NCBI GenBank assembly: GCA_951406725.2
Contig: OX597819.1
Span: 64,480,001 to 64,544,000 of the forward strand
DNA from: Octopus vulgaris
Lineage: Eukaryota
DNA: 64,000 bases
Direction: 5' to 3'
The notes below the pieces were generated by a model. That model was not told the DNA's origin. It was given only the letters and a program-made list of their open reading frames with translations, and ran no database searches. Below, one piece after another: positions 2,548 to 2,915 of this stretch; within the stretch, counting starts at the first letter, position 1, and every line of letters begins with the position of its first letter. The translations under genes were made by a program, and so were the position numbers.

Positions 2548-2915
2548 AATTAATCAATATAGGGTGGCAAAAAAAATTTTGTAGAATTCTTTTGCCACCA
2601 GCGGCCTAGTAGGAAAAAATTAAATAGCATAGACCATTTTTAAGTTCAACAACAACAATCAAGGAACGGCCATAATAGGCCATTCACCCACTAGAAATAA
2701 CAGCCAAAGCTTCAACCGCAAATAAAAGTTAATTCTGTAAACCAGGAGAAAATTTTAAAAACATTTACCCTGTAAGAAATTATAAGAAATTACAGGGTAA
2801 ATGTTTTTTAAATTTTCTCCTGGTTTACAGAATTAACTTTTATTTGCGGTTGAAGCTTTGGCTGTTATTTCTAGTGGGTGAATGGCCTATTATGGCCGTT
2901 CCTTGATTGTTGTTG
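2548..2915. mobile_element. Fold-back copy of the HHR element at 10461-11310 (minus arm 2548-2775, plus arm 2783-2915)
   Basis: Both arms match 10583-10818; arms are reverse complements of each other over ~125 bp; (TA)n on both sides. Confidence 0.9.

Follow-up and report, generated by a model that had tools for sequence, protein, structure and literature searches.

Introduction

As far as the available text of the two closest reports goes, non-LTR retrozymes have been described with linear and circular RNAs (PMC7229834) and have been linked to the pLTRs of Penelope-type elements, or PLEs (bioRxiv 10.64898/2026.07.22.740005), and both reports propose that PLEs mobilise the metazoan elements by way of linear and circular RNAs. 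The term 'inverted' is absent (0 occurrences) from the available text of the first source and appears once in that of the second. For PLEs, the accessible sections of the literature describe inverted 5' copies with a 30-40 bp tail at one end (PMC8557442; PMC8969392). The tail has there been ascribed to endonuclease resolution and the junction to self-priming (PMC8557442, PMC3846280), and the way in which PLEs make their tandem and inverted ends and their one-sided tail is described as undefined (PMC8557442). According to the sections available for PMC11167929, the protein PAc (Anolis Poseidon) cuts and extends both strands of AT-rich DNA in vitro, two internal reverse transcription (RT) starts bound the tail, and a dimeric protein is predicted. 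That work found no strand difference in the start site, insertion in vitro did not need the hammerhead ribozyme (HHR), and RNA-seq reads with an end at the HHR cut were not seen (PMC11167929).

The subject of this analysis is a palindrome in a stretch of 64,000 nucleotides of Octopus vulgaris DNA (contig OX597819.1), hereafter the window. It is a short two-armed insertion of a presumably non-coding HHR retrozyme, and it was probably produced by twin priming at two internal sites of the element. Twin priming is familiar from LINE-1, where both target strands prime on one RNA and a 5' inversion joined by microhomology results. In LINE-1 the annealing place of the second primer varies and there is no overlap between the arms, whereas the octopus family has a fixed second site and arms that overlap or roll through several units. 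The component parts of this account are already known. The literature consulted gave no instance of PLEs or retrozymes twin-primed at two fixed sites, of the pairing of one end of each kind, of second arms that could not have been copied from the first, or of a coupled HHR stop zone; supplements and older PLE papers may hold a twin-priming model of this sort.

Set against the available text of the sources above, the octopus family resembles metazoan non-LTR retrozymes in its presumably non-coding tandem units with a type I HHR, low GC and high copy number (PMC7229834; bioRxiv 10.64898/2026.07.22.740005), and differs from them in a 490-nt unit, a stem II insert of about 70 nt, head-to-head insertions and two fixed ends. 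With EN+ PLE insertions it shares partial tandems, an inverted 5'-truncated copy, a tail at one end and microsatellite targets (PMC8557442, PMC3846280); in contrast to these, its unit is too short for an RT-endonuclease ORF, its tail is 105 nt long (30-40 nt in PLEs) and both arms may be multimers. The extension of both strands from two internal starts is common to PAc and, by the twin priming proposed here, to the octopus family, but each octopus insertion combines the two different sites, and a stop zone lies at the HHR position. Hundreds of young insertions allow models to be separated by their one-of-each ends, non-copyable second arms and coupled first-pass stop zone. The result bears on whether the hammerhead, dispensable in vitro in the available account (PMC11167929), acts in vivo, it lends genomic support to rolling-circle reverse transcription of animal retrozymes, and the 490-nt unit offers a small substrate for a direct in vitro test.

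Results and discussion

Structure of the window palindrome

Positions within the element refer to a 490-nt reference unit, window 10583-11072, in which +1 is the base after GUC. The palindrome and its relative in the window comprise the following features.

2528..2547, (TA)n target, left flank, common to the palindrome and the neighbouring element
2546..2775, minus strand, arm A, covering +8..+236 of the retrozyme unit; its outer end in (TA)n is the first fixed end (236)
2776..2780, templated insert at the apex, GAAAT (7 nt long if +1 is taken as the start of the right arm), inside the 10-mer repeat 2773-2792
2781..2915, plus strand, arm B, running from unit -2 (or from +1 at 2783) as far as +135; its outer end in (TA)n is the second fixed end (~131)
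2916..2999, (TA)n target, right flank
10461..11310, plus strand, sister insertion of the GUC subfamily, one-armed and partly tandem (unit 383-490, 1-490, 1-236), with (TA)n tracts on both sides
10486..10588, plus strand, type I hammerhead copy 1 (RF00163), predicted cut after 10582
10976..11078, plus strand, type I hammerhead copy 2 (RF00163), predicted cut after 11072

The palindrome is a real member of the 490-nt-unit HHR retrozyme family. A first-pass annotation had described it as a sister of the HHR element at 10461 without the HHR core. The core is indeed missing, and both arms match the unit of that element at 91-93% identity. Reverse-complemented, the left arm (2546-2775) corresponds to +8..+236 at 93% identity to the 10583-11072 unit, in agreement with the statement that the minus arm halts about 7 nt before the cut. 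Between the two arms 126 of 127 nt are identical, the nearest relatives of the palindrome are 98-100% identical, and the nearest copy is at locus L093.

The plus arm had been said to start at 2783, exactly at +1 after a GUC cut. Its match to unit +1..+135 stands, but the triplet does not, as the cleavage triplet of the palindrome's subfamily is GUA: CGTA was found in 113 of 113 contexts besides the window's own, drawn from the 30 closest loci, some copies being counted repeatedly where these loci overlap. Since the subfamily has GUA, the TA at 2781-2782 fits -2/-1 as well, and the alignment places the start of the right arm at -2; an end lying precisely at +1 is therefore unreadable from the window copy alone. 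The reported 10-mer, TAAGAAATTA, is present twice at the apex (2773-2782 and 2783-2792), and its reading as a duplication becomes one of three equally good parses: duplication of +1..+10, slippage by TA microhomology from an end at -2, or a jump onto the complement of the stem I 5' strand (GTAAGAAAT). At the other end of the arm, 2915 is the family's second fixed end and not a random truncation. Taken singly, the window palindrome is an ordinary family member, and it shows in short form the layout that is general in the family: (TA)n, an arm ending at 131, an apex, an arm ending at 236, (TA)n.

That the palindrome is a chimeric fold-back read or an assembly artefact is barely conceivable. Among the short contigs of public runs no piece spans the window apex, as would suit an artefact; against this, the palindrome has unique, unmirrored flanks and arms of unequal length that differ by one base, both outer ends lie at family-wide fixed sites, and contigs of the separate public runs X4 and X18 contain head-to-head joints belonging to other copies.

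The sister element and its hammerhead

The RF00163 match in the sister element scores 22 bits, below the gathering score of 34, with E=0.014. The predicted ribozyme has a long stem II insert (~70 nt), a 3-bp stem III and a near-palindromic loop, a build that has been linked, in the available text of PMC4209133, to activity as dimers; an active hammerhead is absent from the minimum-energy fold of the monomer. Of 131 distinct units, 126 have an intact core. All four bases occur at N7, and only C (61) or A (70) stands before the cut. The core is nearly invariant, yet 79% of unit positions are equally so. A whole-window Rfam scan gave no hammerhead among the matches listed (150 of 250), nearly all of which paired microsatellites with miRNA models. 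Ribozyme cleavage may occur in vivo on indirect signs, namely the variation at tolerated HHR positions and the first-pass stop zone described below. Contigs of four runs presumed to be RNA cover the unit; contigs cannot reveal RNA ends or circles.

At the 5' end of the sister element, 10461-10479 forms a direct repeat of about 19 nt of the stretch just before the HHR core. This repeat resembles the templated inserts seen at apexes.

Two fixed ends across the family

Exact patterns were used to collect copies from the genome. The 236 end followed by TATA gave 710 matches and its reversed control 0, so the 3'-end pattern is not due to chance; the 131 end gave at least 856 matches, again with 0 for the reversed control. 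Set A consisted of the first 100 listed 236 ends, from contigs C1-C3, of which 11 complex loci were dropped (these include L132 and L173, both with exact +1 ends). Set B, independent of set A, consisted of 62 parsed loci anchored at 131. For this set, 70 loci were fetched of 100 listed, most of the other 30 being already in set A; 7 of the 70 were duplicates and one (L234) was unparsed. Of the 62 parsed loci 6 were cut by the locus edge and 3 were complex; 3 of the cut loci and the 3 complex ones were left out when arms were counted.

In set A an inverted arm was present in 74 of 100 loci and absent in 15. All 74 inverted arms ended at 111-136, 71 of them at 125-136, and 0 ended near 236. In set B, 36 of 62 partners ended at 226-241, 12 loci were one-armed and 5 had other partner ends; none of the 62 had a partner with a second 131 end. 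Neither a 236/236 nor a 131/131 pair was seen in sets A and B. Several of the 'one-armed' loci carry a second arm of 10-25 nt when inspected by eye. Each two-armed insertion has two fixed outer ends, one of each kind, which bound a 105-nt tail, together with a variable apex, arms of one subfamily, and a junction with overlaps or short inserts. Arm lengths ranged from 25 to 3019 nt with the apex anywhere along the unit (set A), and both arms may be multimers, reaching about 3 kb and about 1.9 kb in the unbiased set. Insertions are mostly head-to-head and lie in (TA)n; the anchored ends do so by design of the search pattern, and the unanchored partner ends also run into (TA)n in nearly all two-armed loci listed.

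The mapped insertions consist of unit sequence only. The RT and GIY-YIG ORF of an autonomous PLE is absent from them, and the 490-nt unit is too short for an RT-endonuclease ORF. The family has the hallmarks of a non-LTR retrozyme in its 490-nt tandem period with a type I HHR core in each unit, its lack of LTRs and its dispersed, high copy number. Mobilisation by a PLE is indicated by the inverted 5' copy with a tail at one end only (74/100; 36/62) and by the AT-rich microsatellite target. The Penelope-type structure recognised earlier in the window copy is borne out.

The longest array encountered, at locus L195 (G000:C10:17474000-17483999), has 19 unit pieces over about 9 kb and ends at unit 131, its other end lying at or beyond the edge of the fetched stretch.

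Probable twin priming and the origin of the two arms

In the proposed mechanism, a Penelope-type RT-endonuclease likely makes cuts in both strands of the (TA)n target. The two ends so produced likely serve as primers for cDNA synthesis on one RNA, each at its own fixed internal site (unit ~131 or ~236), and microhomology end-joining likely unites the two cDNAs head-to-head. On a circular or multimeric RNA both RTs would pass the ribozyme and leave tandem arms; on a self-cut linear monomer both would reach the 5' end and mostly lose 4-24 nt before joining, and the window copy would be a least-trimmed product of this linear class. In this scheme the cleavage, the circles and the partner enzyme are inferred.

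The first-pass annotation had favoured a cDNA that reached the RNA 5' end and then folded back or restarted. In its general form, this account has the cDNA reach the RNA 5' end, form a hairpin and copy itself, with an endonuclease resolving the product at 131. In the available text of PMC3846280 junction palindromes are read as self-priming, and in the octopus family short palindromes have arm B contained in arm A, apexes are symmetric beyond chance with several on palindromic words, and the common fate and alleles of the two arms would also follow. Fold-back, however, requires that A contain the whole of B and that B begin downstream of the point where A ends. This fails for 29 of 110 B arms, which hold more than 30 unit positions missing from A (at locus L155, A is 27 nt and B 533 nt), and 40 of 110 B arms exceed any same-pass fold-back copy ending at 131. 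One-armed insertions starting at 131 also exist (12/62). In the window copy itself the loop is in the wrong orientation, with +1..+7 present in B and missing from A. As a family-wide rule, fold-back is contradicted by the 29 B arms not copyable from A, and the earlier account does not extend to the family, in which the second arm has a fixed start of its own and often contains sequence that the first arm lacks.

Where both arms stop within +45, B extends further 5' in 16 insertions and A in 4 (p=0.012), and the window copy is of the B-further kind. Among the 17 stop-stop palindromes alone the split is 12 to 4 (p=0.077), which leaves room for fold-back in some short copies. Apex symmetry (26 of 74 within 26 nt, 10.1 by permutation) does not discriminate: same-sense cDNAs can pair only at self-complementary words, and twin priming too predicts symmetric apexes. 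The 110 junctions comprise 58 overlaps, 8 blunt joins and 44 inserts, and many of the inserts repeat adjoining sequence. Inserts that repeat neighbouring sequence are also seen in polymerase-theta end-joining. Overall, the family-wide statistics favour twin priming over self-priming, and fold-back is improbable as the origin of the palindrome.

Twin priming on one RNA is to be distinguished from priming on two RNAs, or on two units of one read-through array transcript, which would serve the two primers with no need of a circle. The arms of an insertion differ from each other by 0.65% and from a typical other copy by 5.0%, and 86 of 88 arm pairs are closer than the typical copy despite the many subfamilies. 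Copies within a subfamily are near-identical, so arm identity cannot tell one molecule from two. The nearest other insertion is on average 0.5% different, as close as the partner arm, and of the sample-private alleles 19 were in both arms and 70 in one arm only; the two figures together stop short of proving a single RNA molecule. Where a position is covered by at least three copies, 9 private alleles are common to every copy, 16 are present in some of the copies and 72 are confined to a single one, as separate templates would allow. Against separate templates, the fates of the two arms are coupled in 68 of 70 insertions and arrays reach 19 unit pieces. Both arms likely come from one RNA molecule, and priming on two RNAs or on two units of a read-through transcript is very improbable.

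Arm stops near the predicted cut

Stops were analysed in 255 clean arms pooled from 145 insertions, with exposure counted per position. Boundaries from BLAST against a single unit gave many false '+1' starts, and re-alignment to repeated real units moved most of these upstream of the cut. The sharp breakpoint peak at +1 that had been predicted from the window copy was rejected, as 0 of 255 clean arms stop at +1..+4. Exact +1 starts among the 270 loci scanned are limited to the window copy, L132, L173 and L199.

The broader expectation that arm ends relate to the cut was met in part. On the first pass, 47 stops fell in +1..+25 where 7.4 were expected, all of them at +5..+25 (47 stops from 30 insertions, the arms not being independent), a rate of 11.2 per 1000 nt compared with 1.8 per 1000 at 26-236. 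The pile-up was present in each set alone (set A 29 vs 6.9, set B 18 vs 4.7). The 25 nt just past the cut had 10 stops with 10.8 expected, and a one-sided stop zone therefore begins at the predicted cut. Most arms, 146, cross the ribozyme, contrary to a simple end at the cut. On later passes +1..+25 had 7 stops, compared with 4.2 from background and 24.6 at the first-pass rate (p=0.0004). Such first-pass-only enrichment suits an RNA with a ribozyme-made 5' end.

Among the 70 insertions in which both arms reach +25, both arms stop in 17, both cross in 51 and the arms differ in 2 (two-by-two table 17, 1 and 1, 51; p=4e-14). From these coupled fates we infer that the two arms share one of two template states, either a linear RNA whose end is near +1 or a circular or multimeric RNA. 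The evidence for a mix of ribozyme-cut linear and circular templates is indirect. The stop zone is about 3.6 times commoner in the TTGTTG class (unit ~128), to which the window copy belongs, than in the remainder (19/47 vs 7/63, p=0.0005), which suggests that subfamilies differ in cleavage or circularisation.

It is rather unlikely that twin priming acted with a pile-up at +5..+25 that the ribozyme did not make, arising instead from a transcription start in that vicinity, a stall of RT at stem I, or a self-complementary A/T run at about +17..+32 that favours joining. This would suit the lack of any clean arm at +1..+4 and the scatter of stops over +5..+25, the A/T slippage repeats borne by many of the +5..+25 junctions, and the greater strength of the pile-up in one marker class; a transcription start is compatible with the stop data. 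A stall or sequence bias, however, should act on every pass, which the later-pass deficit contradicts. In addition, the upstream edge of the zone lies at most 4 nt from the predicted cut, and there are three exact +1 ends besides that of the window copy.

The two arms were also compared at stops elsewhere in the unit. In 17 insertions arm A ends early and arm B runs across the ribozyme; the opposite was seen in 2. Several of the early A stops fall close to where B starts (102-136), as though A had met B's primer.

Candidate partner enzyme and other families

The genome contains a young autonomous PLE with a 781-aa ORF that has RVT_1 plus, at its C terminus, GIY-YIG. This PLE targets (TA)n and ends at two sites 40 nt apart, giving a 40-nt tail, and 3 of 3 inverted copies among the 20 fetched pair a tailed with an untailed end. 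Its terminal repeat has no canonical HHR by pattern, and no DNA similarity to the 490-nt unit was detectable. No pLTR homologous to the unit was found in 70 GIY-YIG loci (from 150 listed of 6136 candidates), and the 20 GIY-YIG loci other than those of the 781-aa PLE likewise showed no pLTR homology to the unit. The sole strong match in the GIY-YIG loci is a 53-nt retrozyme fragment, in one place.

The loci of this PLE (L301-L320, e.g. G000:C16:20832000-20841999) contain many near-identical 781-aa ORFs with a CxxxxCxxC linker motif.

As a tentative extension of the twin priming model, a dimer of a PLE RT-endonuclease might prime both break ends on a single ribozyme RNA, one subunit per fixed site, with both RTs rolling round a circle. 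Such a process would yield the PLE tail, the inverted pLTR and retrozyme arrays alike, and the genome would then preserve, in countable form, the proportions of cut-linear (about a quarter) and circular templates.

The same rule of two fixed ends is followed by an unrelated family with a member next to the palindrome.

2249..2531, neighbouring unrelated two-armed element of the 358-nt unit family

Ends in this family are fixed at unit 312 and 358, leaving a 46-nt tail, and at least 1413 search candidates were returned. In a query-biased sample judged by eye, 15 of 20 two-armed loci pair one of each end. The element at 2249-2531 has no HHR by pattern and no Rfam match, and may carry an unknown ribozyme or none.

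The element sits in the same (TA)n patch as the palindrome. The 358-nt family is a good control for the stop zone.

Other features of the window

The whole-window repeat scan was dominated by microsatellites. Recurrent SINE-like fragments at 803-883, 3961-4113, 4242-4342 and 4452-4541 end in GAAGCCCGTCG, each with (TA)n after it. The (TA)n tract at 4724-5207 is very long, has an A11-T33 island mid-tract and is possibly unstable or poorly assembled.
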